From Teichococcus wenyumeiae (GTDB lineage: Bacteria > Pseudomonadota > Alphaproteobacteria > Acetobacterales > Acetobacteraceae): 49,077 nt of DNA. Below the pieces are notes generated by a model. The model saw nothing but the letters and a program-made list of their open reading frames with translations, was not told where the DNA came from and did no database searches. Below, in pieces: positions 4,801-24,240 of this stretch (within the stretch, counting starts at the first letter, position 1; every line of letters begins with the position of its first letter). Location: NCBI RefSeq assembly GCF_003696345.1, contig NZ_RFLX01000026.1:1-49077 (forward strand), given 5' to 3'. The position numbers were made by a program, and so were the translations under genes.

Positions 4801-7800
4801 CTCGCGCATCGCCGCCTGCGCCTGCCGGGCCTGCCGCATTCGGTGTTCGAGACCACGCTGGAGGCCCGGCGCCTGCCGCTGCTGGAGCACCACCGGGTGC
4901 ATGGGCGCGTGCTGGTCGCGGGGGCCGGGTACCTGTCCATGCTGCTGGCCGGCGCCGCCCTGCTGACGGGCCGGGAAGCCCAGGTGCTGCGCGAGGTATC
5001 CTTTGTGGAGCCGCTGTTGCTGCCGGAGCATGGCGGCTGGACCGTGCAGATGCAGTTCCTGCCCCTGCCGCAGGGGCAGGAAGCGCGTCTGGTGGGCTTC
5101 GACGCCGCCGCGGAGGAGGGCGACCACCGCCTGCACGTCACCGCCACCCTGGCGGCGGATGTCGCCCCGCCGCCCGCGCCGCCGGATTTCGCCGCGCTGC
5201 GGGAACGCTGTCCCCGGTTGCTGGAAGCCGCGACGCTCTACGCGCGGCTGGCCGACCGGCACATCGCCCTCGGCCCACAGTTCCGCTGGCTGGAACGGAT
5301 CTGGCTCGGGCAGGATGAGGCGGTGTTCGAGGTGGCGCCGCCTTCCGGCGAGGCCGTGGACCCTGCCTTCCAGTTGCACCCGGGCCTGCTGGATTCCCTG
5401 TTGCAGCCGGCCCTGGCCGTGCTGGCGATGGGGCAGGGGAACGACACCTACGTGCCCGTGGCGCTGGAATCATTCCGTTTCCACGCCCGCCCCGCGGCCT
5501 TTCCGTTGCGCGGATATGTGCGCCGGCGCGGCGCGGCGCAGGATCTGGCGGACATCCTCGTCTGCGATGCCACGGATGCCTGCGTGGCAGAGGTGCACGG
5601 CTTCGAGTTCCGCCGGCTGGATGCGGGCAGGGTGGGCGCGGCATCCCCGCTGGATGCGGCGCTCTACGCCGTGGCCTGGGACGAATGCCCCGCTCCGGCG
5701 GCGGCAGCGGCGGAGTTTCCCGCTCCTGCTGTTCTGATGGCCGATGATGCGGTGCTGCGCCATGGACTGGATGCGCCCCTGGCGGCGGTCAACAGCCCCC
5801 GCTACCAGCAGCAGTCCGAGGACCTGGAGGCGCTCGGCCTCGCCTACCTGGTCGAGGCCTTCAAGGAAGTCGGCGCCCTGCCGCAGCCGGGTGCCTGGCG
5901 CGGCACCGAGGAGATCGCGCGGCGGCTGGCGCTGGTTCCGGGTCAGGACCGCCTGCTGCGGCGGCTGCTGCACATCCTGGAACGGCATGGCCGCCTGCTC
6001 GGGCGCGACGGGGGATGGGAAGCGCTGGAATGCCCGCCCGCCCTGTCCTCCGCCGCGCAGCGGGCGCGGGTCGAGGCGCGGCACGGCACGGCGGCGGAAG
6101 CAGAGCTGGCGCTGCTGGCCGCCTGCGGCACGCAACTCGGTGCCATCCTGCGCGGGGAGGCGGACCCGCTGGAGGCGCTGTTCCCGGGCGGAGACCTCGG
6201 CCCCGCCACGCGCCTGTACCAGGATTCCGCCGGCTTCGGCGCGTTGAACGGCCTTGTGGCCAATCTGGTTGAGAGGCTGGCCCAGGGCCTGCCGGCCGGC
6301 CGGCGCCTGCGCATCCTGGAAGTCGGCGCCGGCACGGGGGCCACCAGCCACTACGTGCTGCGGCGGCTGGACGCGGCCCGGGTGGACTACGTGTTCACCG
6401 ACGTATCGCCCCTGTTCCTGGCGCGGGCGCGCGGCAAGTTCGCGGCCTGGCCCGGCATGGACTACCGCCTGCTGGACATCGAGCGCGACCCGGCGGAGCA
6501 GGGCATCGAGCCCGGCAGCGTGGATCTCGTGATCGCCGCCAACGTGCTGCACGCCACGCGGGACCTGTCCGAGACCCTGGCCCATGTGCGTCGCATGCTG
6601 CGGCCCGGGGGGCACCTGGCGCTGCTGGAGGTGAACGAGCCCACCGTTCCGGTGGACCTGACCTTCGGCCTGCTGGAAGGCTGGTGGCGCTTCAGCGATA
6701 CGGCGCTGCGTCCGGCCTACCCGTTGCTGTCGCGCCGTCAGTGGCTGGCGCTGCTGCGGGCGCAGGGCTTCGCCACGGCCGCCGCCGCGCCGCTGGAGAT
6801 TCCGACGCCGGGCGGGCTGCAGAGCGTGATTCTCGCGCAGGCGGACGGCGTTGCGCCGCAACGCCCTGGCGCATGGGCCGTGCTGGGCGGGGCAGGGCCG
6901 GCGGGGGCACTGGCCACCGCGCTGGCGGCCGCGGGCGCCGAAGCGCGCCCGATGTCCGAAGCCGCGCTGGATGCCGCCCTGGTGGGCGGGGATGCGCTGC
7001 GCGGCATCGTGCTGGTCGTGACGCCCGGGGAGGCGGCCGCTGCGGCATGTACCGCCGCGATCCGGCTGTTGCGGGCGCAGTTGCGCGCCGGCACGTCGCA
7101 CCCCGTGCATCTGGTGACACGCGGCGCGCTGGAAGATCCGGCGCAAGCCACGTTGCAGGGCCTGGGTCGCGTGCTCTTCGCCGAGCATCCGGACATGGCC
7201 GGCAACCTGATCGACCGCGATCCGGACGAACAGGGCGACACCATGGCCGTTCTGGCCTCCCTGCTGCTGGAAGGGCGGGCGGAAGACGAGCTGGCCCTGC
7301 GCGGCGGCCGCGTGCTGGCCGCGCGGCTGCGGCCGCTGCCCGCGCCGCGACCCGCCAGTATGCCGCTGCGGGCCGATGGCACATACCTGATCACCGGCGG
7401 CCTCGGCGGCATTGGCCTGCGCCTCGCCACCGCGCTGGTGGCGCGGGGTGCGCGCCACCTGCTGCTGCTGGGCCGCGGCGCACCGGACGCGGCGGCGCAG
7501 GCCGCGATCGACGCCCTGGCCGCGCGCGGGGTGCGCGTCCGCACGGCGCAGGCGGATGTGGCGGATGCCGCGGCCCTGGCGGCTGTGCTGGCGCAGGGGG
7601 AAGAGGAGCCGCCGCTGCGCGGCGTCTTCCATCTCGCCGGCGTGCTGCACCAGGGGGTCCTGGCGCAACTGTCACCGGATGCCTTCGCCACGGCGACCGC
7701 CGCCAAGATCGAAGGAGCATTGCATCTGGACCGCCTGACGCGGGCGGCGCCGCTGGAGCATTTCGTGCTGTTCTCCTCGGCTGCCGCGCTGCTGGGCCTG

Positions 7801-8475
7801 CCGGGGCAGGGTGCCTACGCAGCCGCCAACGCGGCGCTCGACGCGCTGGCACGCCGGCGCCGTGCCGCGGGCCTGCCCGCTCTCAGCATCGGCTGGGGGC
7901 GGTGGTCGGAGGTTGGCATGGTGGCGTCCGATGCCGTGCGGCTGGAGGCTGCGGGCCATGGCGCCATTGTTCCCGATGCCGGTCTGGCGCTGCTGGAACG
8001 GATCTCCGATGGCCCTGCCCACCAGGCGGTGCTGCCGGCGGACTGGCCGCGCCTGCTGGCCGGACTGCCGCGACGCCCCACGCTGCTGGCGGAGCTGGAA
8101 CGCCCGGCGCCGCAACCGGTGTTCCAACCGGCGCCGCCCGCGCCCGCTGTTCCTGCCGGGCCGGCGCCAGGGGGCATGATGGGCTACCTCGTGGCTGAGC
8201 TGCAGCGGATCACCGGCGCGGCCATGCCGCCGCCGGCCACCAGCACCTTGCTGGAACTGGGGCTCGACTCGCTGATGAGCATCAACCTGCGCAACCGCAT
8301 CGCGCGCGAGGTGGGCGTGAACCTGCCGCTGGGCACGCTGATGGATGCCACCCTGCGGCAGCTCGCGGCGGAGCTGGAAGCGCGCGCCGACCTGGCGGGC
8401 CGTATCCGCATGGATGCCGGCCCCGTGCCGGCCGAAGCCGGCGACGCTCCCATGGAAGAGGATATCCTCCTATAA
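172..8475 (+). CDS. hybrid fatty-acyl-AMP ligase / type I PKS module: FAAL-ACP-KS-AT-DH-cMT-KR-ACP
   Basis: 2767-aa ORF with a GTG start. Motifs read: FAAL LLLLTSGSTGTPKG; ACP FFDLGGHSLL; KS DIAVIGMACRFPGA, TACSTG, EAHGTGT, NIGHLQ; AT GHSLGEY with HAFH (malonyl-type); DH HxxxGxxxxA, GPQF and DxxxQ; cMT LEVGAGTG; KR YLITGGLGGIG; ACP LGLDSL. The C-terminal tail is ...MEEDILL. Confidence 0.92.
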   Translation: MSVGVYQTELRAWTHGGCLQALPGAPANLAAALRQAAQSGAGIFYAEDHRQQSYAELLQQASSIAGSLRAQGLRDGEPVVLQLDNAADVLPAVWACFLHGYTAVPVAPVAEFTNGHAEARRLRAAIDVLNDPLVVVPDDRLEEWRGRNVGSRVVSLRELRQDSAKERPKEPGPESPALLLLTSGSTGTPKGVPLTHANLLAMAAGTAQMNGFGAAHAALNWMPLDHAGALIFLSVMPVLLGASQVHIPTRRVVERPLLWLELIARHRAAISWAPNFAFSLINNAAEELQRAALDLSCLRFLVNAGEQVTARTALDFLTLLAPYGVPQDVLRPAFGMSETCSGITWSAGLTPACLAQEGSYVSLGRPIPGAEIRITCEDGAVLAEGEVGRLELRGASVITGYHANPAADAEAFTDDGWFRSGDLGFIRDGELYLTGREKEELAINGRKVPLHDVEASVAMVPGVMPAFTCAFGVRQADTDGLVVTFCAEERDQAAWPALVRAIRAHLVRDMRLSPVQVVPLAASDVPKSSIGKIQRRSLQASYMAGNFTEVTNRFDTAPGRAAAGTPLSAVEERVAAIWRAVLDLQHVGRDENFFDLGGHSLLLIKAQSMLEAAFGPVTLGDLFAHSTVAMQARFLSGTKEDVVPRPVRRSADGRRVDIAVIGMACRFPGADTIDEFWRNLRDGVESIRTFTAAEAVREGADPRSAQQPGYVAASPVLNDAAGFDATFFGLTDREAELMDPQHRLFLECCWEAMEDAGQDTLSAPGSVGVYAGASMNTYLLNNVLPARAGLDPQDDLRSVTLDSMGGFQLMVANDKDYLASRVSYKLNLRGPSINTQTACSTGLVVIHQAVQSLLAGECDMAIAGTSSVQAPQLAGHLHQEGMIVAPDGHCRAFDADARGTIFGSGVGAVVLKRLDDALAAGDRVLAVVKGTAVNNDGLRKVGYMAPSEAGESEVVRAALDVAGVPADSIGFVEAHGTGTEIGDPIEVASLTRAWRHDTTRTGFCALGSVKTNIGHLQISSGIAGFIKAVLVLQHRQIPPTLHYRRPNPAIAFERTPFFVNTEALHWVESETPRRAGVNSLGIGGTNAHVILEEAPARPRRAAGDTREWYLLPLSARSPAALAALLARYRDRLLADPALDCADLCYSAATGRHHFAHRFAAVFTGRDTLLAALDAALAGPPDTARAPVGDVAFLFTGQGAQHTGMALGLYREEPVFRDALDRCAALLRAEDGFDLPAALQGEALGETAQAQPALFAVEYALATLWQAWGLRPAALLGHSLGEYVAACLAGVFSLEDGLRLVAARARLMQALPRDGAMISLSADPDRVRAALAPYRDTVSVAALNGAASTVVSGRAADVAALAARLEADGVQGIALRTSHAFHSPLMRPMLEAFRAVLATVTLRPPSLPLVSNLTGAVETALFTEPDYWLRHVMEPVRFAQGVATLEALGCATLVEIGPRPVLAGLVRGSACVLPSLRPGVADARQMLESLAELYRRGLTVHWDALHDATLRQRVPLPSYPFQHRRYWIEPRPQAPQAQDAALHPLAHRRLRLPGLPHSVFETTLEARRLPLLEHHRVHGRVLVAGAGYLSMLLAGAALLTGREAQVLREVSFVEPLLLPEHGGWTVQMQFLPLPQGQEARLVGFDAAAEEGDHRLHVTATLAADVAPPPAPPDFAALRERCPRLLEAATLYARLADRHIALGPQFRWLERIWLGQDEAVFEVAPPSGEAVDPAFQLHPGLLDSLLQPALAVLAMGQGNDTYVPVALESFRFHARPAAFPLRGYVRRRGAAQDLADILVCDATDACVAEVHGFEFRRLDAGRVGAASPLDAALYAVAWDECPAPAAAAAEFPAPAVLMADDAVLRHGLDAPLAAVNSPRYQQQSEDLEALGLAYLVEAFKEVGALPQPGAWRGTEEIARRLALVPGQDRLLRRLLHILERHGRLLGRDGGWEALECPPALSSAAQRARVEARHGTAAEAELALLAACGTQLGAILRGEADPLEALFPGGDLGPATRLYQDSAGFGALNGLVANLVERLAQGLPAGRRLRILEVGAGTGATSHYVLRRLDAARVDYVFTDVSPLFLARARGKFAAWPGMDYRLLDIERDPAEQGIEPGSVDLVIAANVLHATRDLSETLAHVRRMLRPGGHLALLEVNEPTVPVDLTFGLLEGWWRFSDTALRPAYPLLSRRQWLALLRAQGFATAAAAPLEIPTPGGLQSVILAQADGVAPQRPGAWAVLGGAGPAGALATALAAAGAEARPMSEAALDAALVGGDALRGIVLVVTPGEAAAAACTAAIRLLRAQLRAGTSHPVHLVTRGALEDPAQATLQGLGRVLFAEHPDMAGNLIDRDPDEQGDTMAVLASLLLEGRAEDELALRGGRVLAARLRPLPAPRPASMPLRADGTYLITGGLGGIGLRLATALVARGARHLLLLGRGAPDAAAQAAIDALAARGVRVRTAQADVADAAALAAVLAQGEEEPPLRGVFHLAGVLHQGVLAQLSPDAFATATAAKIEGALHLDRLTRAAPLEHFVLFSSAAALLGLPGQGAYAAANAALDALARRRRAAGLPALSIGWGRWSEVGMVASDAVRLEAAGHGAIVPDAGLALLERISDGPAHQAVLPADWPRLLAGLPRRPTLLAELERPAPQPVFQPAPPAPAVPAGPAPGGMMGYLVAELQRITGAAMPPPATSTLLELGLDSLMSINLRNRIAREVGVNLPLGTLMDATLRQLAAELEARADLAGRIRMDAGPVPAEAGDAPMEEDILL
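1870..2090 (+). other. ACP (loading carrier domain)
   Basis: FFDLGGHSLLLIKAQ, with the Ser codon near 1969-1971. Confidence 0.75.
2140..3460 (+). other. KS domain
   Basis: DIAVIGMACRFPGA start. Active-site TACSTG with the Cys codon at 2677-2679. EAHGTGT and NIGHLQ His motifs are present. Confidence 0.85.
3730..4640 (+). other. AT domain (malonyl-specific)
   Basis: GHSLGEY at 3997-4017, a HAFH specificity motif, and the YPFQHRRYW post-AT linker. Confidence 0.8.
4790..5640 (+). other. DH domain
   Basis: HRVHGRVLVAGAGY (an HxxxGxxxxA variant), LADRHIALGPQF, and LLDSLLQ (DxxxQ). Confidence 0.65.
5950..6720 (+). other. C-methyltransferase domain
   Basis: LRILEVGAGTGATS SAM-binding motif at about 6316-6345, and DLVIAANVLHAT. 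Confidence 0.75.
6900..7950 (+). other. KR domain
   Basis: GTYLITGGLGGIGL Rossmann motif at about 7384-7419, and the catalytic region SSAAALLGLPGQGAYAAANA. No LDD motif was seen. Confidence 0.75.
8200..8410 (+). other. ACP domain
   Basis: LELGLDSLMSINLRNR. Confidence 0.75.
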
Positions 8476-8480
8476 CGCCC

Positions 8481-8690
8481 CTGGATGATCTTCTGGCCGA
8501 GCTGGCCGCCCGTGGCCTGCGGCTGGCGGCGGAAGGCGGGCAGTTGCGCGTGCGCGGCCCCCGTGGCGCGGTGGACGACGCGCTGCGCCAGCGGCTCATG
8601 GCCGCCAAGGACGCCTTGCTGGCCTACCTGGAGCGGGACGCCATCACCGAAGACGCGCTGCCCCGCGTGGTGCCGGACCCGGCGCGGCGG
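8481..8690 (+). other. TubC-like N-terminal docking domain
   Basis: LLAELAARGLRLAAEGGQLRVRGPRGAVDDALRQRLMAAKDALLAYL. The same fold pattern is seen at the N-termini of the genes starting at 19489 and 24048. Confidence 0.6.
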
Positions 8691-11600
8691 CATGAGCCGT
8701 TTCCGTTGACCGACATCCAGGAGGCCTACTGGGTCGGCAGCGGCCTCGAAGGCGGCGGCGGTTACCATTACTACCTGGAATTCGACGTGCCCGGGCTGGA
8801 CGTGGCACGGCTGGAGCGTGCCTGGGGCGCGCTGGTGCTGCGGCACGAGATGCTGCGTGCCGTGGTGATGCCGGACGGGCGCCAGCGCATCCTGCCCGAG
8901 GTGCCGGCGCCCCGCGTCAGCCGCCACGACCTGTCCGGCCTGGCCGGGGACGAGGCCGAGGAGCGGCAGGCCGCGCTGCGGCGGACGCTGTCGCACCCCG
9001 ACCGCCCGCTGGACCGGTGGCCGTTGTCGGAGGTGCATGTCAGCCTGCGGGCCGGCGGGCTGGGGCGGGTGCATGTCAGCCTGGGGCTGATCACGCTCGA
9101 CAGCGGCAGCATGATGATCCTCTTCGCCGAGTGGCAGCGGCTGTACGAGGATGCCGGTGCGGCGCTGCCGCCGCTGCCGACATCGTTCCGCGACTACGTG
9201 CTGGCCGAGCGCGCCCTGCAGGGCACCCCGCTGTTCCAGCGGGCCGAGCGCTACTGGCAGCGGCGGGTCGAGGCGCTGCCCCCCGCCCCGGCGCTGCCGC
9301 TGGCACCGCGCCAGCCCCGCGCCGCGTCCCGCTTCGGGCGGATGACGGGGTGGCTGCCCGCGCCGGAATGGGCGGCGTTGAAGCAGCGGGCGGTGCGGCA
9401 CGGGCTCACGCCCTCTGCCCTGCTGCTGGCGGCCTTTTCCGAGATCCTGGCAGGCTGGAGCGAGAGCCCGCGCTTCACCCTGAACCTGACGCTGTTCAAC
9501 CGCCTGCCGATGGGCGAGGCGATCGGCGCCGTGGTTGGCGACTTCACCTCCGTCACGCTGCTGGAAGTAGACTTCACGGCCCGCCGCCCCTTCGTGGAAC
9601 ACGCGGCGGCCCTGAACCGGCAACTGCGGGAAGACCTCGATCACCGCACCTATCCAGGCGTCCGGGCGCTGAGGGAATGGGCGCGGCGCCAGGGTGTCAC
9701 CGGCCGCGCACTGGCGCCGGTGGTGTTCAGCAGCACGCTGGTGCTGGACACGGCGCAGGGCTTCAGCCTGGGCCGGCTGTTCGGCGGAACATTGGGCTAC
9801 GCCATCAGCCAGACGCCGCAATGCGATCTCGACCACCAGCTGATGGAGGATGACGGCGCGCTGGTGTTCCACTGGGACGTGCTGGACGGCCGGTATCCGG
9901 AAGGCATGGTGACGGCGATGTTCGGCGCCTACACCGCCCTCCTGTCACGGCTCGCGGCGGGGGACGAGGCTTTCGCCGAGGCGAGGGGGCCGGCCATCCC
10001 CGCCGCGCAGCAGTCCCGGCGTGATGCCAGCAACAACACCGCCGCGCCGATGGGGGAGGAAACGCTGTGCGAGCTGTTCGCCCGCCAGGTGGCGTCGCGC
10101 GGCGATGCGCCGGCGGTGATCGCGGGCGAGGAGACGCTCAGCTACCGGGAGCTGGACCTGCGCGCCCGCCGCGTCGCGGGCTGGCTGCTGGCGCAGGGTG
10201 CCTCGCCGGACGCGCCGGTGGCGGTGGTGATGCGCAAGGGCTGGGCCCAGCCGGTCGCGGTGCTGGGCACGCTGATGGCCGGCTGCGCCTACCTGCCGGT
10301 GGATGCCGCCCTGCCGCCTGCCCGCCGTGCCGCACTGCTGCAACAGGCCGGCGCGCGGCAGGTGCTGTGCGACGCCTTGCTGCTGCCAGCCCTGTCGGGC
10401 AGCCTGCCATGCCTGGCGGTTGACGCGCAGCCCGCCGATGCCACCGCTGCCGAACCCAGACCGGCGCCGCCGGACGGCCTGGCCTATGTGCTGTTCACCT
10501 CCGGCTCCACCGGGCAGCCCAAGGGCGTGATGATCGGGCAGCGCGGCGTGGTGCAGCGGATGCAGGACGTGGTGCGCCGCTTCGGGCTGGGGCCGCAGGA
10601 CCGCGTGCTGGGCCTGACGGCGCTGCACCACGATCTCTCGGTGTTCGACATCTTCGGCGTGCTGTGCTGCGCCGGCGGAACCCTGGTGCTGCCCGACGCG
10701 GACGGGCTGCGGGAACCCGCCCACTGGCGCGCGCTGATGGCGCGGCACGGTGTCACGCTGTGGAATTCGGTGCCCGCTTTCCTGTCCATGCTGGCGGACG
10801 AGCTGGAAGCGACCGGGGGCGCGGCCCCGCCCCTGCGCTGGTGCATCCTGTCCGGGGACTTCATTCCGGTGACGCTGCCCGATCGTATCCGCGGCCTGGT
10901 GCCGGGGCTGGAGGTCGTGGCCGCCGGCGGGCCCACCGAGACCACGGTCTGGGACATCTGCGACCCCCTGGACGCGGTGGATGCCGGCCTGCCCAGCATC
11001 CCCTATGGCCGCCCCATGGCGAATGCACGGTACCATGTGCTGCGCGAGAACCTGGACCCTTGCCCGGACTGGGTGCCGGGGGAGTTGTGCATCGCGGGCG
11101 CCGGGCTGGCCCATGGCTACTGGCGGGACGAGGCGGCCACGGCGCGCGCCTTCATCCGCCATCCCGTGACCGGCGAGCGGCTCTACCGCTCCGGCGACAT
11201 GGGGCGCTGGCTGCCGGACGGGCGGATCGAGATCCTGGCGCGCCAGGACTTCCAGGTGAAGCTGCAGGGCCAGCGCATTGAGCTGGGCGAGATCGAGGCC
11301 GCGCTGGAACGGATGCCGGGCGTGGCGCGCGCCGTGGTGACGCTGCAGCGCCTGCCGGCCGGGGAAAGCCGGCTGGTGGCGCATATGGTGCCGGCAGCGG
11401 CCCCGCCCGCCGATGCGTGGCGCCTGGAGTTCAAGCTCGGCCAGCCTGGGCTGCGACGCGCGGAGCCAGGGCAGGACGCCCTGCCGCTGCCCACCGTGCC
11501 GGAAGAATCCGCCGCCTTTCTGGCGCGGCAGAGCCACCGCCGCTTCACCGGCCGCGCCGTGCCGGCGGCGGCGCTGTCCGGGCTGCTGGCTGGGCTCCGG

Positions 11601-12557
11601 CAGATGCCGGTTCCGGGGGCGCCGCTGCCCAAGCGCCTGTATCCCTCAGCCGGCAGCCTCTACCCGTTGCAGGCCTACCTGCATGTCCGGCCTGGGGGCG
11701 TGGCGGGCGTGCCGGCGGGCTTCCACTATTACGACCCCTCCCGCCACGCGCTGCTGCCGGTGGGCGGGGAGGAAGCCGGCCCCTACGCCGGCAGCAACGC
11801 CGCCCTGCTGCGGGAGGCTGCCTTCGTGGTGCTGCTGGTGGGGGCGCTGGACGCGGTGGAGCCCGCCTATCCCGGCGCCAGCCGCGACTTCTGCCTGCTG
11901 GAGGCCGGCCATGCCGGGCAGGTGCTGATGCAGCGGGCGGCGGCGCTGGAGATCGGCCTCTGCCCGCTGGGGCAGGGGGTGGAGGAGGCCGCGCTCCGCC
12001 GCGCCTGCGGCCTCGGCGACCGGCACGTGCTGGCCTATACGCTGGCCGGCGGCGGCATCGATCCCGCCTGGTCCGGCGCCTGGATGGCCAATGACGCGCC
12101 CGGCGCGGCCGAGGCCTGGCACGCGCCGCTGCGCCGGGCGGCGCAGGCGGTGCTGCCCGCCCATATGGTGCCTTCCGCCTTCCGCCGCTGGCCCGCCCTG
12201 CCGCTGACCGCCAATGGCAAGCTCGACCGGCGGCGGCTGGCCGAGGCCGGGGCGGGAGAGGAAGCGGCGCCACCCCCGGCGGCGGCCTCGGCGCTGGAGG
12301 CAGAGGTGGCGGCCATGCTGGGCGCGCTGCTCGGCACCGGCCCGGTGGACCCGGCGGCGCCGTTCTTTGACCTGGGGGCGAGTTCCGTGACGCTGGTGCA
12401 GTTGCGCAACCGGCTGCAGGCCGAATGCGGCCTCACCGTGCCCATGGCGGAGATGTTCGGGCGTGGCAGCGTGCGGCTGCTGGCCCAGTGGCTGGAAGAA
12501 GCAGGCGCCGCCATGCCGGCGCGGCCAGCGATGCCCCGGGCGGAGGCGGTATCGTGA
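8481..12557 (+). CDS. NRPS module: docking domain-Cy-A(embedded Ox)-PCP, a thiazole/oxazole-forming module
   Basis: The ORF track starts at TTG 8544, but the reading frame is open upstream to 8460 and encodes an N-terminal docking fold (PLDDLLAELAARGLRLAAEGGQLRVRG). There is no in-frame ATG/GTG/TTG, so the start is uncertain (CTG 8481 is used here). Cy FPLTDIQEAYWVG. A domain FTSGSTGQPKG, YRSGDMGRW and LTANGKLDR. An FMN-oxidase-like insert (YPSAGSLYPLQAY) lies between A8 and A10. PCP FFDLGASSVT. The stop overlaps the next gene's start (GTGA). Confidence 0.88.
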   Translation: MDDLLAELAARGLRLAAEGGQLRVRGPRGAVDDALRQRLMAAKDALLAYLERDAITEDALPRVVPDPARRHEPFPLTDIQEAYWVGSGLEGGGGYHYYLEFDVPGLDVARLERAWGALVLRHEMLRAVVMPDGRQRILPEVPAPRVSRHDLSGLAGDEAEERQAALRRTLSHPDRPLDRWPLSEVHVSLRAGGLGRVHVSLGLITLDSGSMMILFAEWQRLYEDAGAALPPLPTSFRDYVLAERALQGTPLFQRAERYWQRRVEALPPAPALPLAPRQPRAASRFGRMTGWLPAPEWAALKQRAVRHGLTPSALLLAAFSEILAGWSESPRFTLNLTLFNRLPMGEAIGAVVGDFTSVTLLEVDFTARRPFVEHAAALNRQLREDLDHRTYPGVRALREWARRQGVTGRALAPVVFSSTLVLDTAQGFSLGRLFGGTLGYAISQTPQCDLDHQLMEDDGALVFHWDVLDGRYPEGMVTAMFGAYTALLSRLAAGDEAFAEARGPAIPAAQQSRRDASNNTAAPMGEETLCELFARQVASRGDAPAVIAGEETLSYRELDLRARRVAGWLLAQGASPDAPVAVVMRKGWAQPVAVLGTLMAGCAYLPVDAALPPARRAALLQQAGARQVLCDALLLPALSGSLPCLAVDAQPADATAAEPRPAPPDGLAYVLFTSGSTGQPKGVMIGQRGVVQRMQDVVRRFGLGPQDRVLGLTALHHDLSVFDIFGVLCCAGGTLVLPDADGLREPAHWRALMARHGVTLWNSVPAFLSMLADELEATGGAAPPLRWCILSGDFIPVTLPDRIRGLVPGLEVVAAGGPTETTVWDICDPLDAVDAGLPSIPYGRPMANARYHVLRENLDPCPDWVPGELCIAGAGLAHGYWRDEAATARAFIRHPVTGERLYRSGDMGRWLPDGRIEILARQDFQVKLQGQRIELGEIEAALERMPGVARAVVTLQRLPAGESRLVAHMVPAAAPPADAWRLEFKLGQPGLRRAEPGQDALPLPTVPEESAAFLARQSHRRFTGRAVPAAALSGLLAGLRQMPVPGAPLPKRLYPSAGSLYPLQAYLHVRPGGVAGVPAGFHYYDPSRHALLPVGGEEAGPYAGSNAALLREAAFVVLLVGALDAVEPAYPGASRDFCLLEAGHAGQVLMQRAAALEIGLCPLGQGVEEAALRRACGLGDRHVLAYTLAGGGIDPAWSGAWMANDAPGAAEAWHAPLRRAAQAVLPAHMVPSAFRRWPALPLTANGKLDRRRLAEAGAGEEAAPPPAAASALEAEVAAMLGALLGTGPVDPAAPFFDLGASSVTLVQLRNRLQAECGLTVPMAEMFGRGSVRLLAQWLEEAGAAMPARPAMPRAEAVS
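8690..9960 (+). other. heterocyclization (Cy) domain, variant motif GxxxxDxxS
   Basis: FPLTDIQEAYWVG N-terminal Cy signature. The core aligns ungapped to the second Cy domain (DALWGDAHS) as GLITLDSGS. Confidence 0.7.
10050..12230 (+). other. A domain (Cys-like code DLFNISAVWK) with embedded oxidase
   Basis: A3 motif at about 10494-10529. LSGDFIP (typical of Cys-activating domains). A10 LTANGKLDR. The specificity code was read by manual alignment to GrsA. Confidence 0.7.
11400..11990 (+). other. Ox (FMN-dependent oxidase) domain inserted in the A domain
   Basis: RQSHRRFTGRAV...RLYPSAGSLYPLQAYLHV...FCLLEAGHAGQ. Similar to the EpoB/MtaD-type Ox placed between A8 and A10. Confidence 0.7.
12290..12500 (+). 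other. PCP domain
   Basis: FFDLGASSVTLVQLRNRL. Confidence 0.7.
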
Positions 12558-15500
12558 GCAGCGCGCGCGACATCGCCATCATCGGCATGAGCGGCCGCTT
12601 CCCCGGCGCCCCCGACACCGCGCAGCTCTGGGACAACCTGCTGCAGGGGCGGGACGGCATCACGCGGCCCGATCGGGCGGCGCTGCTGGCGGCGGGGGTG
12701 CCGCAGGCGGTGCTGGACCGGCCCGGCTTCGTGCCCGCCGCGCCGCTGCTGGAAGAGATCGACCGCTTCGACGCCGCCTTCTTCGGCATCAGCCCCCGGG
12801 AAGCCACGACGCTGGCGCCCGCCATCCGGCTGTTCCTGGAGTGCTGCTGGGAAGCTTTCGAGAATGCCGGGCGTGTGCCCGGCGGCGCGGTGGGCGTGTA
12901 TGCCGGCGCCAACATGAGCCAGTACTGGCGGCTGGGCGCGCATGGCTTGGAGCCCGGGCTGGAGCAGATCCTCGGCAATGACAAGGACTACCTCGCCACC
13001 CATGTCGCCTACCGCCTGAACCTGAAGGGGCCGGCACTGTCGGTGCAGACCGCCTGCTCCACCTCGCTGGTGGCGGTGCATATGGCGGCCGAGGCCTTGT
13101 TGTCGGGGCAGTGCGACATGGCGCTGGCCGGCGGCGCCACCGTGCGCGTGCCGCACGACCCCGGGTACCAGTGGACGCAAGGCAGCATCCTCTCCCCGGA
13201 CGGCGTGTGCCGGCCCTTCGATGCCGCCCCCAGCGGCCCGGTCTTCGGCAGCGGCGTCGGCGTCGTGCTGCTGAAGCGGCTGGGGGATGCGCTGACGGAT
13301 GGCGACCCGGTGCGGGCGGTGATCCGCGGTTCCGCCATCAACAACGACGGCGGCGGCAAGGCGGGCTTCACCGCGCCGGGCCTGGAGGGGCAGGCGGCGG
13401 TGGTCGCGCAGGCCCTGGCCCGCGCCGGCGTGCCGGCCCGCAGCATCTCCTACATCGAGGCGCATGGCACGGGCACCGCGCTGGGCGACCCCATCGAGGT
13501 CGCCGCGCTGACCCGCGCCTTCCGGCAGAACACGGCGGAGAGCGGCTTCTGCCGCATCGGCTCCGTGAAGGGCAACCTCGGACACCTGGAGACGGCGGCC
13601 GGGGTCGCCGGCCTGATCAAGACCGTGCTGGCGCTGGAACACCGGGAGCTGCCGCCGAGCGTGCATTATGCGGCGCCGAACCCGGAGATCGACTTCGCCG
13701 CCACCCCCTTCGTGGTGAACGCAGCACGCTGCCCCTGGCAGGCGGAGGGCCCGCTGCGGGCGGGCGTCAGCTCCTTCGGCATGGGTGGCACCAACGCGCA
13801 TGTGGTGCTGGAGGAAGCGCCCCCGCGCGCCGTGCCGGACCTGGATAACCGGCCGCAGTTGCTGCTGCTCTCCGCGCGCACGCCCACGGCGCTGGCACGC
13901 ATCGGCCGCGCCCTGCTGGCGCAGCTGCGCCGGCAACCCGACCTGCGGCTGGCGGACGTGGCCCATACCCTGGCCGCGGGGCGCGCCCGCCTGCCGCTCC
14001 GGCGAGCGCTGGTCTGCGCCTCGGTCGAGGAACTGGCCACGCTGCTGGAAACGCCGACGCCCGCTGTCCGCCCGAAGGCCGGGCCCCCGCCTCATCTGGG
14101 CCTGGTGCTGGACGGCGCGCTGCCGCCCTCCCTGGCCCGCGCGCTGCACGCCGAGGACGACACCTTCCGCGCGGCGGCGGACGAGGCCCTGGCGGCCTGT
14201 GGCCTGACCCCCGACGCCTTTCAGGACCCGCTGCCGCCCGCTGCGGCGTTTTGCGCTGGCCATGGGCTGGCGAGGCTGCTGGCCGCCTGGGGGCTGCCGC
14301 CCGCCGCCCTGGCCGCCGGCACGCCCTGGGCCCTGGCCCTGCGGTCCTGCCTGGAAGGGCGCCTCACCCTGCCCGAAGCCGCCGCGCTGGCCTGTGCGAA
14401 GGGTACGCCGCCTTCCGCCGCAATGGCGCCGGAACAGGCGGGCGGGATCTGGGTCGACCCTTCCGCACTGCGCCTGAATGGCGGTGCCGCCTGGGCGGGG
14501 CGCCATGCCCTGCTGCAACTGGTGGCGCACCTCTGGACCCAGGGGTTGGAACCGCTGCCGGGTGCCCTGGCCGGGGTGTCGGCCCGCCGCGTGGCCCTGC
14601 CGACCTATCCCTTCGAGCGGCAGCGATTCTGGGTGGAGGCGGCCCCACAGCCCGTCGCCGTGGCGGAGCCGCCTGCCGTTGCAGCGCCAACTTCGGCCAG
14701 CGCGCCGGATGCCCGCAGCATCCGGCTGGTCTTGCAGCAGATCGTCGGCCATGCGCTGCACCTGCCGCCCGAACAGGTCTCACCTGACCGCGACTTCATC
14801 GAGATGGGCGCGGATTCCCTGGTGCTGGTGGAATCCGTGCAGGAGATCGAGCGCCGGCTGGGCCTGCGCGTGCCCGTGCGCGACCTGTTCGAGACCACCA
14901 CCACCGTGTCCAGCTTGGCGCGGGCCCTGGCCACGCGGCTGGCGGCGGCTCCAGTTTCGGCGGCGTCACCACCACCCACTCTAGCGGCCATGCCGGTGCC
15001 TGCCGCCGCGCCCTCCATCCCGGCTCCGCCGCCAGACACCGTGCTGGACGACCCCCGGCAGCAGCAGCACGTCGCCGCGCTGGTGGCGCGCTATACCGCG
15101 CGCACGGCGGCCTCCAAGCGTCTGGCGGCGGAGAAGCGGGCGGGGCTGGCCGACGTGCGGGCCGCGGCGGGCTTCAAGCTGCTGATCAAGGAGATGCTCT
15201 ACCCGATCGTGGTGGAGCGTGGTGACGGCGGGCACGTCACCGACGTGGACGGCAACGACTACGTGGACGTGACCATGGGCTTCGGCGTGCGCCTGTTCGG
15301 CCACCGCGCCGCGTTCCTGGACGCCGCGTTGCGCGACCAGTTGGACCGCGACGCGCCGCTGGGGCCGGAGAACCGCGACACCGGCGACGTCGCCGCCTTG
15401 CTGCGGCGGATGACGGGGATGGAGCGGGTCGCCTTCTTCACCACCGGCACGGAAGCGGTGATGACCGCCCTGCGGCTGGCCCGTGCGCGGAGCGGGCGGG

Positions 15501-18500
15501 ACGGGTTGGTGCTGTTTAAGGGGTCCTATCACGGCCATGCCGATGCGACGCTCGGCATCGGCCTGCCCGACGGCCGCGCCGCGCCGCTCTCCGCCGGCGT
15601 GCCCTCCACCACGCTGCAGCACCTGACCATTCTGGACTACGGCAGCGAGGATGCGCTGCACCGCATCGAGGCGCAGGCCGCCCATCTGGCGGCGGTGGTG
15701 GTGGAACCGGTGCAGAGCCGGCATCCGGACCGCCAGCCGCAAGCTTTCCTGCAGGCGCTGCGGCGGATCACGCAGCAGCACGGCATCGCCCTGATCTTTG
15801 ACGAGATGATCACCGGCTTCCGGATCGGTGCCGGGGGCGCCCAGGCCTGGTTCGGGGTGGAGGCGGACATCGCCGCCTACGGCAAGATCGTGGGCGGCGG
15901 CATGCCGGTGGGCGTGGTCGCCGGCAAGGCTGCGTGGATGGACGGGCTGGACGGCGGTGCGTGGCGCTTCGGCGATGCGACCTATCCGGAGAAGCCCGCC
16001 ATCTTCTATGCCGGCACCTTCAACAAGAATCCCTGGACCATGGCCGCCGCGCGCGCGGTGCTGGCGGAGATCGACGCGCGAGGCCCGGCGCTGTTCACCG
16101 CGCTGAACCGCCGCACCACCTGGCTCGCCACCGCGCTGAACGCGTTCTTCGCGCGGGAAGGCGTGGCGCTCGAGGTCGTCCACTTCGCGTCCCTGTTCCG
16201 CTTCCGCGTGGGCGGGCTGGCGGACCTCTTCTTCTTCCACATGATCGCGAGCGGCATCTACATCTGGGAAGGCCGCAACTGCTTCCTGGCCGCGGCGCAT
16301 GACGACGCGGATGTGGAGCGCATCATGGCGGCCGCGCGCGACAGTGCCCTGGCCCTGCGCGCGGACGCCTTGCTGGACGCGGCGCCCCCCGCGCCACGCC
16401 ACCCCGTCACCGCCGCGCAGGCGCAACTGCTGCTGTTGGAGCGGATCGACCCCGATGCCGCGCTGGCCTACAACATTCACCTGACGGCCCTGCTGTCCGG
16501 CCCGCTGGACGAGGACGCGTTGCAGCTGGCGGTCGCGGCCCTGGTGCGGCGGCACGAAGTGCTGCGCAGCCGTTTCCCTGACAGCGCGGATGCGCGCGTG
16601 GCGGAGCCGTTCCTCTGGGTGCCGCTGCAGCGCCACGACCTGGCGCCGGAAGCGGTGGACGGCTGGTTCGCCGGCGAGGCATCCCGCCGCTTCGACCTGG
16701 CGGAAGGCCCGCTGCTGCGCGCACAGCTGTTGCGGCTGGGGGCGGGGTCGGCGCAACTAGTGCTGTCCCTGCCGCACATCATCGGGGACGGCGTGACCCT
16801 GAACCTGCTGCTGCGGGAACTGGTACAGCTCTACGAGGGCGAGCGGGCGGGCCGCGCCGCCGGGCTGCCGGAGCCCGTGCCCTTCCATGCCTACACAGCC
16901 TGGCTGGAAGCCCGCCGCCCTGCCTCGGCCACGGATCTCGCATGGTGGCGGCAACAGCTTGCCGGGCCGCTGCCGGTGCTGAACATGCCGCTGGACCATC
17001 CTCGGCCGGCGGTGCGGCGGCACGCGGCGGCTGTGGCGACCACCCGCATGGATATCGCCCTGGCGACGGCGCTGCGGCGGGCTGGCGGCACGCGGCGCGC
17101 CACCTTCCTGATGCTGTGCCTGGCGGCATGGCAGGCGCTGCTGCACCGGATCAGCGGCGATGACGACCTGATCGTCGGCGTACCCACCGCCGGGCGCGGC
17201 ATGCCGGGCAGCGAGGCGATGGCCGGATATTGCACGCACCTGCTGCCCGTTCGCAGCCGCCCCCTGGCCGGCGCGCGTTTCGCCGACCTGCTGGAAGCCA
17301 CCCGCGCCACGCTGCTGGATGCCATGGCGCATGGCGATCTCCCGTTCGCGGAGCTGCTGGACGCGCTGGCCCTGCCGCGGGACGCGTCGCGCACGCCACT
17401 GCTGTCCACCACCTTCAACCTGGACCACCCCCCGGCAGCGGCCACGATGGATGGCGTGACCCTGCAGGTGGTGCCGCCGCCGGTGCATCATGCCAGCTAC
17501 GAGCTGGCGCTGAACATCACCGAACTGGATGACGGGCCCGTCGTGGAATGCCGCTACCACACCGCCCTGTTCGACCCCGCGCGGATCCAGGCCCTGTTGC
17601 GGCAATACGAGACGGTGCTGCGCCAGGTGGCGGCCGACCTGGAGGTGCCGCTGGCATCGCTCGACCTGTCGCGAGGGGAAGCGGCGCTGCCCGACCCCGC
17701 GGCACCGCTTGCGGAGCCGTCCTACCCTGGCGTGCTGGCGCTGCTGCTGCGCCAGCCGCCCGATGCCATCGCCATCCGGGACGCGGAACGCGCGTGGCGG
17801 TACGCGGAGGTGACGGAGGAAGCCCAGGGCATCGCCCGGATGCTGGTGGCCCATGGCGTGCGGCCCGGGGACCGTGTGGCGCTGCTGGCGCCGCGCGATG
17901 GCCGGCTGGCCTGTGCTATGGCGGGAACCTGGCTGGCAGGCGCCGTCTTCCTTTGCCTGGACGCGGCCCTGCCGCCGGCGCGCCTGCAGGCCATGGCGGA
18001 GGCCGCCGGCGCTGGTTGGGTTCTGGACCTGCATGCCACGCCGTCCACGGTGCCCGCCGGGCCGACGCACCTGCACGCCCCTTCCGGCAGCGTTTGGCCG
18101 GAAGCCGGGTTGCCGGCGATGCCGGCCGGAGACGACCCGGCCTACATCGTCTTCACCTCCGGCACCACGGGCCGGCCGCGCGGCATCCTGGGCACGCACA
18201 AGGGGGTGGCGCAGTTCCTGGACTGGCAGCGCCAGCGCTTCGGCATCGGCCCGGCGGACCATGTGGCGCAACTCGCCGCCCCGTCCTTCGACGTGCTGCT
18301 GCGGGACGTGTTCCTGCCATTGACCACGGGCGCCACGCTGCATGTCCCGCCGCCCGCCGTGGCGGATGACCCTGCCGGCCTCGCCGCATGGCTGGCAGCC
18401 AGTGGCGTCACCGTGCTGCATGCAGTGCCATCGCGCGCACGGGGGTGGCTGGCGGCGGCCCCGGTGGGCGGCTGGCCGCAACTGCGCCGCACCTTCTTCT

Positions 18501-19492
18501 CGGGGGAAGCGCTGGACCCCGGGCTGGCCCGCGCATGGCGGGCAGCCTGCGCGGCCGAGGCGCTGGTGGTGAACTTCTACGGCAGCACCGAGACCACCAT
18601 GATCAAGGGCTACCGCGTGCTGGACGAGGGCGGCCCCCTGCACGCCGTGCTGCCGATGGCTGACACCCAGATGCTGGTGCTGCGAGACGGCCAGCCCTGC
18701 GGCGTCGGCGAAGCAGGAGAGGTGGTGGTCCGCACGCCTTTCCGCAGCGCCGGCTATCTGGAAGGCGGCGCGGCCGCGACCTTCGTGCCCAGCCCCTTCC
18801 GTTCAGCGGACATGCTGTATCGCAGCGGCGACACCGGCCGCTTCCGCGTGGATGGTTCGGTCGAGATCCTGGGCCGGCTGGACGAGCAGGTGAAGATCCG
18901 GGGCGTGCGGGTGGAGCCTGCCGAGGCGCGCCTGGCGCTGGAGGCACACCCGGCCGTGGCACAGGCGGCCGTGCTGGCCTGGCCGGGTGCGGCAGGGCCG
19001 GAACTGGCCGCCTATGTCGTTCCGGCGGCAGATGAGGACCCGGCCCCCGCGGCGCTGCGGGCCTTCCTGGCCGCCCGGCTGCCGGCCGCCGCCGTGCCGG
19101 GATGCGTGACACTCCTGCCCGCGCTGCCGCTGCTGCCGAACGGCAAGCTGGATCGCCACGCCCTGCCGCCGCCACAGGCCGCGTCGCCCGTGGCGGTGGT
19201 GCCACCGCGTGGCGCGATGGAAGCACTGCTGCTGCGGGCATGGCACGACGTGCTGCCAGGCGTCCCGCCGGGTGTGGAGGATGACGTGTTCACGCAGGGC
19301 GCCAACTCGCTCGGCGCGACCCAGCTGGTATCGCGCCTGCGGGGGCTGCTGGGGCTGGAACTGCCGCTGACGGCGGTGTTCGAGAACCCGACGGTGGCCG
19401 CACTGGCGCGGCATGTCGAGATGCGGCAGGCGCTGGCGGCGGTGATGGCCGATCCGGCCGAGATGGATGACGGAGAACTGATCGGTCCATGA
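12554..19492 (+). CDS. hybrid PKS/NRPS: KS-AT(degenerate)-ACP-aminotransferase-C-A-PCP (beta-amino acid forming)
   Basis: GTG at 12554 overlaps the upstream TGA (GTGA). MSSARDIAIIGMSGRFPGA is a KS N-terminus. The stretch 12425-12553 in the ORF track is out-of-context read-through. KS TACSTS, EAHGTGT, GNLGHLE. The AT remnant lacks the active-site Ser (GHGLA). ACP MGADSL. Class III PLP aminotransferase with YGKIVGGGMP. C domain PHIIGDG. A domain FTSGTTGRPRG, YRSGDTGRF, LPNGKLDR. PCP GANSLGA. The C-terminal tail is ...EMDDGELIGP. Confidence 0.9.
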   Translation: MSSARDIAIIGMSGRFPGAPDTAQLWDNLLQGRDGITRPDRAALLAAGVPQAVLDRPGFVPAAPLLEEIDRFDAAFFGISPREATTLAPAIRLFLECCWEAFENAGRVPGGAVGVYAGANMSQYWRLGAHGLEPGLEQILGNDKDYLATHVAYRLNLKGPALSVQTACSTSLVAVHMAAEALLSGQCDMALAGGATVRVPHDPGYQWTQGSILSPDGVCRPFDAAPSGPVFGSGVGVVLLKRLGDALTDGDPVRAVIRGSAINNDGGGKAGFTAPGLEGQAAVVAQALARAGVPARSISYIEAHGTGTALGDPIEVAALTRAFRQNTAESGFCRIGSVKGNLGHLETAAGVAGLIKTVLALEHRELPPSVHYAAPNPEIDFAATPFVVNAARCPWQAEGPLRAGVSSFGMGGTNAHVVLEEAPPRAVPDLDNRPQLLLLSARTPTALARIGRALLAQLRRQPDLRLADVAHTLAAGRARLPLRRALVCASVEELATLLETPTPAVRPKAGPPPHLGLVLDGALPPSLARALHAEDDTFRAAADEALAACGLTPDAFQDPLPPAAAFCAGHGLARLLAAWGLPPAALAAGTPWALALRSCLEGRLTLPEAAALACAKGTPPSAAMAPEQAGGIWVDPSALRLNGGAAWAGRHALLQLVAHLWTQGLEPLPGALAGVSARRVALPTYPFERQRFWVEAAPQPVAVAEPPAVAAPTSASAPDARSIRLVLQQIVGHALHLPPEQVSPDRDFIEMGADSLVLVESVQEIERRLGLRVPVRDLFETTTTVSSLARALATRLAAAPVSAASPPPTLAAMPVPAAAPSIPAPPPDTVLDDPRQQQHVAALVARYTARTAASKRLAAEKRAGLADVRAAAGFKLLIKEMLYPIVVERGDGGHVTDVDGNDYVDVTMGFGVRLFGHRAAFLDAALRDQLDRDAPLGPENRDTGDVAALLRRMTGMERVAFFTTGTEAVMTALRLARARSGRDGLVLFKGSYHGHADATLGIGLPDGRAAPLSAGVPSTTLQHLTILDYGSEDALHRIEAQAAHLAAVVVEPVQSRHPDRQPQAFLQALRRITQQHGIALIFDEMITGFRIGAGGAQAWFGVEADIAAYGKIVGGGMPVGVVAGKAAWMDGLDGGAWRFGDATYPEKPAIFYAGTFNKNPWTMAAARAVLAEIDARGPALFTALNRRTTWLATALNAFFAREGVALEVVHFASLFRFRVGGLADLFFFHMIASGIYIWEGRNCFLAAAHDDADVERIMAAARDSALALRADALLDAAPPAPRHPVTAAQAQLLLLERIDPDAALAYNIHLTALLSGPLDEDALQLAVAALVRRHEVLRSRFPDSADARVAEPFLWVPLQRHDLAPEAVDGWFAGEASRRFDLAEGPLLRAQLLRLGAGSAQLVLSLPHIIGDGVTLNLLLRELVQLYEGERAGRAAGLPEPVPFHAYTAWLEARRPASATDLAWWRQQLAGPLPVLNMPLDHPRPAVRRHAAAVATTRMDIALATALRRAGGTRRATFLMLCLAAWQALLHRISGDDDLIVGVPTAGRGMPGSEAMAGYCTHLLPVRSRPLAGARFADLLEATRATLLDAMAHGDLPFAELLDALALPRDASRTPLLSTTFNLDHPPAAATMDGVTLQVVPPPVHHASYELALNITELDDGPVVECRYHTALFDPARIQALLRQYETVLRQVAADLEVPLASLDLSRGEAALPDPAAPLAEPSYPGVLALLLRQPPDAIAIRDAERAWRYAEVTEEAQGIARMLVAHGVRPGDRVALLAPRDGRLACAMAGTWLAGAVFLCLDAALPPARLQAMAEAAGAGWVLDLHATPSTVPAGPTHLHAPSGSVWPEAGLPAMPAGDDPAYIVFTSGTTGRPRGILGTHKGVAQFLDWQRQRFGIGPADHVAQLAAPSFDVLLRDVFLPLTTGATLHVPPPAVADDPAGLAAWLAASGVTVLHAVPSRARGWLAAAPVGGWPQLRRTFFSGEALDPGLARAWRAACAAEALVVNFYGSTETTMIKGYRVLDEGGPLHAVLPMADTQMLVLRDGQPCGVGEAGEVVVRTPFRSAGYLEGGAAATFVPSPFRSADMLYRSGDTGRFRVDGSVEILGRLDEQVKIRGVRVEPAEARLALEAHPAVAQAAVLAWPGAAGPELAAYVVPAADEDPAPAALRAFLAARLPAAAVPGCVTLLPALPLLPNGKLDRHALPPPQAASPVAVVPPRGAMEALLLRAWHDVLPGVPPGVEDDVFTQGANSLGATQLVSRLRGLLGLELPLTAVFENPTVAALARHVEMRQALAAVMADPAEMDDGELIGP
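12566..13830 (+). other. KS domain (follows an NRPS module)
   Basis: Cys, His and His active-site residues are all present (TACSTSLV, EAHGTGT, GNLGHLETAAG). Confidence 0.85.
13850..14600 (+). other. degenerate/truncated AT domain (AT-null)
   Basis: The KS-AT linker and the post-AT PTYPFERQRFW motif are conserved. The AT core is shortened, and GHSxG is replaced by AGHGLAR at 14258-14272, so there is no catalytic Ser. Confidence 0.65.
14720..14930 (+). other. ACP domain
   Basis: DFIEMGADSLVLVESVQ. Confidence 0.7.
15050..16330 (+). other. PLP-dependent aminotransferase (AMT) domain, class III / GSA-aminotransferase-like
   Basis: VDVTMGFGVRLFGH, FFTTGTEAVMTALRLAR, IFDEMITGFR, and the PLP-Lys motif AYGKIVGGGMP (Lys codon at about 15884-15886). 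The domain order ACP-AMT-C resembles MycA/ItuA/McyE-type beta-amino installation. Confidence 0.8.
16390..17700 (+). other. C domain (accepts beta-aminoacyl donor)
   Basis: PHIIGDG, an HHxxxDG variant in which the second His is retained. Confidence 0.7.
17720..19170 (+). other. A domain, non-standard specificity code DVRHFSFMIK
   Basis: The A3 motif reads TSGTTGRPRG (Lys to Arg). A7 YRSGDTGRF. A10 LPNGKLDR. The code keeps a Ser-like D-V-x-H-x-S core but otherwise matches no standard code. Confidence 0.65.
19230..19430 (+). other. PCP domain
   Basis: DVFTQGANSLGATQLVSRL. Confidence 0.65.
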
Positions 19493-19690
19493 CGGTCGCT
19501 GAACTGCTGCAGGCCCTGCGCCGCCACGGTGCGCAGATCGCTGTGCAGGACGGCGCGCTGCGCCTCAAGACAACGGCGGAACTGCCCGCGGTGCTGCGCG
19601 ATACGCTGGCGGCGCAGCGGGACGCGCTGGTGGCCTTGTTGCGCGATGCGCCCGCCGCGTCCGCCCAGCGGCCTATTCCGCCCGCCCCGC
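19489..19690 (+). other. TubC-like N-terminal docking domain
   Basis: ELLQALRRHGAQIAVQDGALRLKTTAELPAVLRDTLAAQRDALVALL. Confidence 0.6.
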
Positions 19691-24051: not shown

Positions 24052-24240
24052 CCAGCCCCTGCATCGAGGATTTCCTCGAAGTCCTTTCGCGCGCCGGCGT
24101 CGTGCTGGCCGTGGAGGGAGACCGCCTCCGCCTGCGCGCCGCCCCCGGCGTGCTGAACGACGCGCTGCGGGCGGAGATCGCGGCGCGCAAGCCGGAACTG
24201 CTGCGGGCGCTCGGCCGGAATGAGGGCATCCGCGCGGCAG
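24048..24240 (+). other. TubC-like N-terminal docking domain
   Basis: IEDFLEVLSRAGVVLAVEGDRLRLRAAPGVLNDALRAEIAARKPELLRAL. Confidence 0.6.

Follow-up and report, generated by a model that had tools for sequence, protein, structure and literature searches.

The window analyzed here, a stretch of 49,077 nucleotides from Teichococcus wenyumeiae (contig NZ_RFLX01000026.1 of assembly GCF_003696345.1), carries six plus-strand genes, g1 to g6, for a mixed assembly line, part polyketide synthase (PKS) and part nonribosomal peptide synthetase (NRPS), and it raises the question of what is made where the thiazole module of that line meets a module that forms beta-amino acids. The protein g2 contains a heterocyclization (Cy) domain, an adenylation (A) domain with an embedded oxidase (Ox), and a peptidyl carrier protein (PCP), and is followed directly by g3, in which a ketosynthase (KS), an acyl carrier protein (ACP), and an aminotransferase (AMT) precede a condensation (C) domain, a further A domain, and a PCP. 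An earlier note on this DNA, made from the letters alone, had proposed that the KS extends a thiazolyl thioester and that the AMT then aminates the resulting beta-keto group, and our analysis supports that reading at the sequence level only. We consider it probable that the thiazole module feeds the beta-amino-forming KS-ACP-AMT unit, within a colinear line that starts from a fatty acyl-AMP ligase (FAAL) and PKS module and builds a thiazolyl beta-amino acid. If this is true, the product would contain a beta-amino acid with a thiazole on its amine-bearing carbon. Domain identities, catalytic residues, synteny, and KS affinity were computed, whereas the chemical steps, the source of the malonyl unit, and the mode of release are proposed from them.

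Pfam profile searches bore out the succession of Cy-A(Ox)-PCP and KS-ACP-AMT-C that the earlier note had read from position 8481 onward, with E values for the named elements from 1e-12 to 1e-80. Of the limits that it gave, 8481 falls at the start of the TubC_N docking domain, and 16330 is where the AMT ends in an alignment with the MycA AMT. The open reading frame (ORF) 8544-12557 matched the families Condensation (3.7e-27), AMP-binding (1.9e-79), Nitroreductase (8e-12), and PP-binding, and the ORF 12425-19492 matched ketoacyl-synt (1.6e-66), PP-binding, Aminotran_3 (8.1e-48), Condensation (1.8e-72), AMP-binding, and again PP-binding. The GTG start codon of g3 at 12554 overlaps the stop codon of g2.

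The N-terminal region of g2 aligns with EpoB from residue 48, and database relatives of the protein are labelled 'epothilone synthetase B'. Its Cy domain has the Thr of FTLN and the Asp of GDFTS, which we take, from the BmdB and EpoB structural literature, to be the catalytic pair, as well as SQTPQ, and all three motifs are present in five aligned orthologues. The A-domain code DLFNISAVWK, identical in these five proteins, agrees with the canonical Cys code DLYNLSLIWK at six of ten positions, with three conservative differences, when extracted against a PheA reference fragment. The Ox lies between motifs A8 (QVKLQGQRIELGEIE) and A9 (LPAHMVP) and has the motifs KRLYPSAGSLYPLQ and GFHYYDP.

The AMT of g3 had as its best match among solved structures the AMT of MycA (6KFM, E 9e-132), followed by glutamate-1-semialdehyde aminomutases at about 1e-52. 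The motif AYGKIVGGGMP, in which the earlier note had placed the lysine that binds pyridoxal phosphate (PLP), was found at g3 residues 1107-1117 (window 15872-15904), with Lys1110 at 15881-15883. This lysine, GTEAVM, and FDEMITGF with its cofactor-binding Asp align with 6KFM and are kept in the five aligned orthologues, so the PLP-fold residues on which the proposed amination step depends are intact. The same orthologues all keep the KS triad (one reads HGTAT) and the ACP Ser.

Between the KS and the ACP of g3 no acyltransferase (AT) was matched by Pfam at E<=1. The remnant found there differs in length and sequence in every aligned orthologue and is deleted in one of them (L082), and from this drift the KS module is predicted to be functionally AT-less. 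The sole AT in the window is that of g1, which has GHSLGE and the malonyl signature HAFH.

The junction between thiazole module and KS-ACP-AMT is not confined to the window. Using a search with the Cy protein plus contig look-ups, we found four genes in the order FAAL-PKS, docking domain-Cy-A(Ox)-PCP, KS-ACP-AMT-C-A-PCP, and C-A(MT)-PCP, where MT is a methyltransferase, in the loci L001, L082/L083, L084, L085, L088 (Algicola sagamiensis), and L090; two further loci (L086 and L087) have the same order as far as their short contigs extend. The orthologous loci span 44-76% GC and at least seven other lineages, with 44-69% protein identity to g2. Because the gene order recurs across these relatives, the junction is neither an isolated case nor an accident of assembly but belongs to a whole orphan family of clusters, in which it is conserved. 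The earlier note had allowed that gene order might place the action of the Cy protein elsewhere in the pathway, and the position of this protein proved to be conserved in L001, L082-L088, and L090. That note had mentioned neither the family, nor the decayed AT and missing discrete AT gene, nor the variant motif GLITLD in the Cy domain.

Two related clusters continue differently behind the thiazole module. The sister cluster L089 (GCA_028281495.1, 14589-24392) has the same FAAL-PKS and docking domain-Cy-A(Ox)-PCP proteins, followed by KS-AT-KR-(ACP)-C-A, in which KR is a ketoreductase, and its KS after the thiazole module is 64% identical to the KS of g3. With its cis AT retained, L089 would be the beta-hydroxy counterpart of the beta-amino version. 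In L091, from a metagenome-assembled genome of Anaerolineae, the continuation is an epothilone-like KS-AT-KR-KS. Comparison of L089 and L091 therefore indicates that this type of KS accompanies the thiazole module whatever follows it.

The affinities of the KS were examined against the listed matches of a genome-contig scan with g3 as the query, all of which were at most 47% identical to it and among which the orthologous family does not figure. None of the 80 other KS-(AT)-ACP-AMT-C loci among the matches listed had a true Cy or Ox within 10 kb upstream, a count that is not a frequency estimate. Most of the KSs in these loci receive their substrate from a FAAL-ACP, and the others from PKS modules or from A-PCP loaders, which are often of the A-PCP-sulfotransferase kind. 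The earlier note had put its case to a comparison of KS clades, which turned out in its favor: identities of the window KS lie at 44-56% (median 53%) with A-PCP-fed KSs versus 39-48% (median 42%) with ACP-fed KSs (Mann-Whitney p 2.5e-11). In a neighbor-joining tree the KSs of the family fell in a clade of 32 members, 26 of them A-fed, and the nearest neighbors were five A-fed KSs. This NRPS-fed clade, together with the 64% identity to the KS of L089, supports the prediction that the g3 KS accepts a PCP-bound thiazolyl thioester. The AMT leans the other way, with a median identity of 52% to the AMTs of ACP/FAAL-fed modules versus 43% to those of A-fed modules (p 4e-6), and because the two affinities oppose each other, the g3 module looks mosaic.

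The termini of the proteins bear on their order of action. TubC_N docking domains are clear on g2 and g5 and weak on g4, acidic tails ending in LL are alike on g1 (...EEDILL) and g4 (...QEEFLL), and g3 starts straight with its KS. This arrangement of docking domains and tails supports a predicted colinear order, which alone would fit it. The colinear order is favored because it is the only one with the loader first, the thioesterase (TE) last, and each module used once, and it is also in keeping with the gene order, which is the same in all relatives.

In the pathway that we propose, g1 would activate a fatty acid and extend it with one malonate, and C-methylation, reduction, and dehydration would yield a 2-methyl-2-enoyl-S-ACP. 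The C-terminal tail of g1 would engage the beta-hairpin docking domain with which g2 begins. The Cy domain of g2 would join the acyl chain to Cys-S-PCP and cyclodehydrate the product, and the Ox would then oxidize the thiazoline, giving a 2-alkenyl-thiazole-4-carbonyl-S-PCP. The KS of g3 would condense this thiazolyl thioester with malonyl-S-ACP; since the AT of the module has decayed, malonyl would have to come from an AT acting in trans, for which the g1 AT and FabD are the likeliest candidates. The MycA-type AMT would transaminate the beta-keto group to form 3-amino-3-(2-alkenylthiazol-4-yl)propanoyl-S-ACP, and the C domain would couple this beta-amino acyl unit, through its carbonyl, to the first in a series of five amino acids. 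These are predicted to be the residue of the g3 A domain (17750-19147; code DVRHFSFMIK, with no confident substrate match), an N-Me-Ile/Val-like residue, D-N-Me-Phe, D-Asp, and a Thr that may be O-methylated. A second Cys would become a thiazole through the Cy domain of g6, and the TE would release the product, most likely by macrolactamization onto the free beta-amine, by analogy with iturin.

Parts of this scheme have counterparts in known systems. MycA, of the mycosubtilin/iturin type (FAAL-ACP-KS-ACP-AMT-C-A-PCP), shares with g3 an AT-less KS-ACP-AMT-C-A-PCP order and a closely homologous AMT, and the expected ring-closing role of its beta-amine is the same. Its KS, however, is fed by a FAAL-ACP on the same protein, whereas here a PKS module and the Cy-A(Ox)-PCP protein intervene between FAAL and KS, and the malonyl transacylase gene of MycA-type operons (FenF/ItuD) has no counterpart in the window. 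The EpoA-EpoB-EpoC series (PKS; docking domain-Cy-A(Ox)-PCP; KS) shares the hand-over of a thiazolyl thioester to the KS of the next protein. EpoC, though, is KS-AT-DH-KR-ACP, with a dehydratase (DH) and no AMT, the EpoB Cy domain reads DLINVD where g2 reads GLITLD, and the upstream PKS here begins with a FAAL, unlike that of epothilone. Judged by its domains, the junction is EpoA/EpoB/EpoC-like up to the KS and MycA-like from the KS on.

The nearest published case is pateamine, in which module 6, a thiazole module with Cy-A-Ox, and module 8, a downstream AMT module that forms a beta-amino unit, act on the same chain (PMC7157528). There, a beta-branching/enoylreductase module intervenes, so that the amine is not on the thiazole-attached carbon, and the system is a trans-AT line for a macrodiolide, unrelated in architecture and organism (PMC7157528). 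It is the only published pathway that we found to have both thiazole and AMT modules. FAAL-fed KS-AT-ACP-AMT-C starters of the puwainaphycin type (PMC4219810), from cyanobacteria and other bacteria, share the ACP-AMT-C logic at the start of the peptide but keep a cis AT. The same logic is shared by the KS-AT-ACP-AMT-C loci fed by A-PCP-sulfotransferase, which likewise keep a cis AT and lack Cy or Ox upstream; a substrate bound to a PCP is thus acceptable to KS-AMT modules, as the A-PCP-fed loci demonstrate. The earlier note had called the junction unusual. This stands insofar as no Cy or Ox precedes the 80 comparison loci and no paper describing it was found in the full texts searched, and it needs tempering insofar as A-PCP-fed AMT modules and pateamine are partial precedents. 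All domains and individual hand-overs have precedents; the combination is new, and it overturns no principle.

The loci with an A-PCP-sulfotransferase protein followed by KS-AT-ACP-AMT-C (L019, L035, L055, L064, and L072) form an observation of their own. The A-PCP-sulfotransferase lies approximately 3 kb upstream of the KS, and the hosts belong to Nitrospirales, Saprospiraceae, Anaerolineae, Gemmatimonadales, and Bacteroidota. To our knowledge, no product has been described for this architecture.

Several points weigh against the proposed thiazolyl beta-amino acid pathway. The product and all of its chemistry are inferred, not observed. The FAAL-fed g1 KSs of the family share the 'NRPS-fed' KS clade, so part of the KS signal may be within-cluster relatedness. 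The DH motif of g1 reads HxxxGxxxxA and its KR lacks LDD, which makes the presence and geometry of the double bond uncertain. A discrete AT gene of the FenF/ItuD type is absent from the accessory genes of the window and from the 171 bases upstream of g1, and acyltransferase genes are likewise absent from the upstream flanks of L082, L084, L088, and L090. There is, moreover, no in-frame ATG, GTG, or TTG from the preceding stop codon (located before 8199) as far as TTG 8544, so translation of g2 must begin at a noncanonical start (CTG 8481 or ATA 8472), or else the sequence is in error here. We rejected TTG 8544 as the start because the docking domain would be halved; the g2 orthologues start with ATG in L001, L084, and L085 and with GTG in L082, and that of L087 is likewise annotated with a truncated docking domain. 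Lastly, the Cy signature DxxxxDxxS reads GLITLDSGS in g2, where EpoB, HMWP2, and FmoA3 carry DxxxxD, an element usually regarded as invariant in Cy domains.

This last feature would suit a Cy domain impaired by the Asp-to-Gly exchange, able to condense only or inactive, in which case an N-acyl-cysteinyl or thiazoline thioester would be passed on and a 3-amino-4-acylamino-5-mercapto acid would result. Mutation of the DxxxxD Asp residues reportedly damaged the activity of the VibF and BacA Cy domains, whereas structural work on BmdB-Cy2 is said to make DxxxxD a structural element and to assign catalysis to the Thr/Asp pair that is kept here. The Gly is itself kept, as GLI(T/V)LD, in each of the five aligned orthologues, whose overall identity is 54-69%, together with FTLN, GDFTS, and SQTPQ. 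It is found in most family members (L001, L082, L084, L085, L087, P0130, and P0144), while the Algicola orthologue P0174 and EpoB have the Asp and an Anaerolineae EpoB-like protein has Ala (P0200 is among the variant sequences listed); the position thus varies between Gly, Ala, and Asp within the EpoB-like clade. Conservation of the Ox domain also argues against impairment, because without a thiazoline the Ox has no substrate. An impaired Cy domain is accordingly very unlikely in our estimation, and domains with GxxxxD look like natural exceptions to the DxxxxD rule. The decay of the AT, the lack of a trans-AT gene in the window, and the rarity of AT loss, seen in 1 of 66 other KS-AMT modules among the matches listed, invite a different doubt, namely that the KS-ACP-AMT of g3 is a relic, either passed over or used for transfer alone, so that the next amino acid is attached straight to the thiazolyl carbonyl, with neither C2 extension nor transamination. 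Against this, the Cys-His-His of the KS, the Ser of the ACP, and the Lys and Asp of the AMT are kept in five orthologues at 51-62% overall identity and the AT remnant alone drifts, a malonyl-specific AT is present in g1, and MycA, which is likewise AT-less, is said to function with a trans-acting loader. We give the relic only a slight chance.

It is also conceivable that the line is not colinear, with Cy-A(Ox)-PCP acting elsewhere, for example after g4, and the KS-AMT extending the plain FAAL-PKS chain. The similar tails of g1 and g4 and the TubC_N domains on both g2 and g5 would permit such cross-docking. Any swapped order, however, strands modules without a starter or without a TE, and none of the orthologous clusters, at 44-76% GC, departs from the gene order of the window. 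In addition, the start of g3 overlaps the end of g2, and the KS falls among NRPS-fed KSs and is 64% identical to the one behind the same Cy module in L089, which has no AMT. A noncolinear order is thus extremely improbable. The compound may instead have been described already, which would make the junction known chemistry, and the literature searched was without most subscription-journal papers. In the full texts covered, which mostly exclude subscription journals, no described thiazole/beta-amino junction or residue and no named product was found, and nothing relevant linked thiazole/beta-amino lipopeptides with Roseomonas or Algicola; the database proteins of the family carry no compound-specific name. 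A prior description is therefore unlikely. Thiamyxin was considered as a match and rejected, its biosynthesis having a GNAT loader and no AMT. A myxobacterial origin of the DNA, which the 73% GC and the TubC_N docking domains had suggested, was rejected as well, since a partial protein annotated in Teichococcus wenyumeiae, of the Roseomonas group within Alphaproteobacteria, is 100% identical to g2.

More tentatively, and with less confidence than we place in the junction itself, the clusters may specify an undescribed class of cyclic lipopeptides in Alpha- and Gammaproteobacteria. In these compounds, a C-terminal thiazole-4-carbonyl would be closed onto the amine of 3-amino-3-(2-alkenylthiazol-4-yl)propanoate, an unreported building block, with the cis-AT of another module serving in trans and a Cy domain working with GxxxxD. 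Because the family occurs in the culturable Teichococcus wenyumeiae and Algicola sagamiensis, the prediction is directly testable. For assembly-line engineering, the clusters represent natural experiments on three counts: a MycA-type AMT predicted to act on a heteroaryl beta-keto substrate, matched clusters with either AMT or AT-KR behind the same thiazole module and KS, and Cy domains without the first Asp of DxxxxD. The orphan family is widespread and a good target for genome mining, not a new kind of system.

The features of the window are collected in Table 1. The GC content is 73% across the window, and the plus-strand assembly line (172-43276) is followed by a block of accessory genes on the minus strand (43319..48892).

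Table 1. Positions of the assembly-line genes, the domains at the junction, and the accessory genes in the window.
Feature	Position	Strand	Composition or basis
g1	172..8475	+	FAAL-ACP-KS-AT-DH-cMT-KR-ACP (cMT, C-methyltransferase); Pfam, motifs, NCBIfam fatty acyl-AMP ligase-type matches
g2	about 8481-12557	+	docking domain-Cy-A(Ox)-PCP
TubC_N-type beta-hairpin docking domain, g2 N-terminus	8484..8633	+	PF18563, E 3.8e-13, at residues 2-51 when numbered from 8481
Cy domain, EpoB-like	8670..9965	+	best solved-structure match PDB 5T7Z (EpoB), E 2.4e-111
GLITLD, variant of Cy DxxxxD	9084..9101	+	first Asp replaced by Gly
A domain, code DLFNISAVWK (Cys-like)	10077..12230	+	Pfam and code extraction
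Flavin mononucleotide (FMN) oxidase (Ox, nitroreductase fold) in A domain	11523..12044	+	PF00881, 8e-12
PCP of thiazole module	12303..12494	+	Pfam PP-binding
g3	12554-19492	+	KS-ACP-AMT-C-A-PCP
KS	12563..13843	+	Cys-His-His intact (TACSTS, HGTGT, GNLGH)
KS-AT linker and decayed AT remnant	13844..14653	+	AGTPW where GHSxG expected
ACP	14732..14929	+	phosphopantetheine Ser755 in MGADSL, 14816-14818
AMT, class III PLP aminotransferase, MycA type	15104..16327	+	Aminotran_3, 8.1e-48
C-A-PCP after AMT	16403..19408	+	C motif PHIIGDG, catalytic His and Asp kept
g4	19489..24051	+	weak docking domain-C-A(N-MT; code DAFFLGAFAK, Ile/Val-like)-PCP
g5	24039..34466	+	TubC_N docking domain-C-A(Phe code, MT)-PCP-E-C-A(Asp code)-PCP-E (E, epimerization domain)
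g6	34472..43276	+	C-A(Thr code, FkbM-type MT)-PCP-Cy-A(Ox)-PCP-TE
Band_7/SPFH gene	43319-44659	-	profile match
ABC transporter gene	44656-46353	-	resembles cyclic peptide exporters
DUF697 gene	46558-47163	-	
Type II thioesterase gene	47238-47921	-	
Phosphopantetheinyl transferase (PPTase) gene	48110-48892	-	

The second thiazole module of the line, in g6, combines a Cy domain of canonical signature (DALWGD) with an A domain that has the Cys code DLYTLSLIWK and an Ox. The Thr-specific A domain of the same protein is interrupted by an FkbM-family methyltransferase (PF05050; residues 985-1167, window 37400-38000), an insertion that suggests O-methyl-threonine. Interruption of an A domain by an FkbM-type enzyme is rarer than the N-MT insertions exemplified by g4 and g5.

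Beyond g6, a plus-strand ORF at 43313-44701 (462 aa, no Pfam match) was rejected as a gene, being the shadow of the Band_7/SPFH ORF on the minus strand. Band_7/SPFH and DUF697 proteins are unusual in biosynthetic clusters, and here they may have a role in export or membrane protection. As in the window, a Band_7 gene flanks the cluster in L084, L088, and L090, whose hosts are distant; L088 also shares with the window an ABC transporter gene that adjoins the Band_7 gene.

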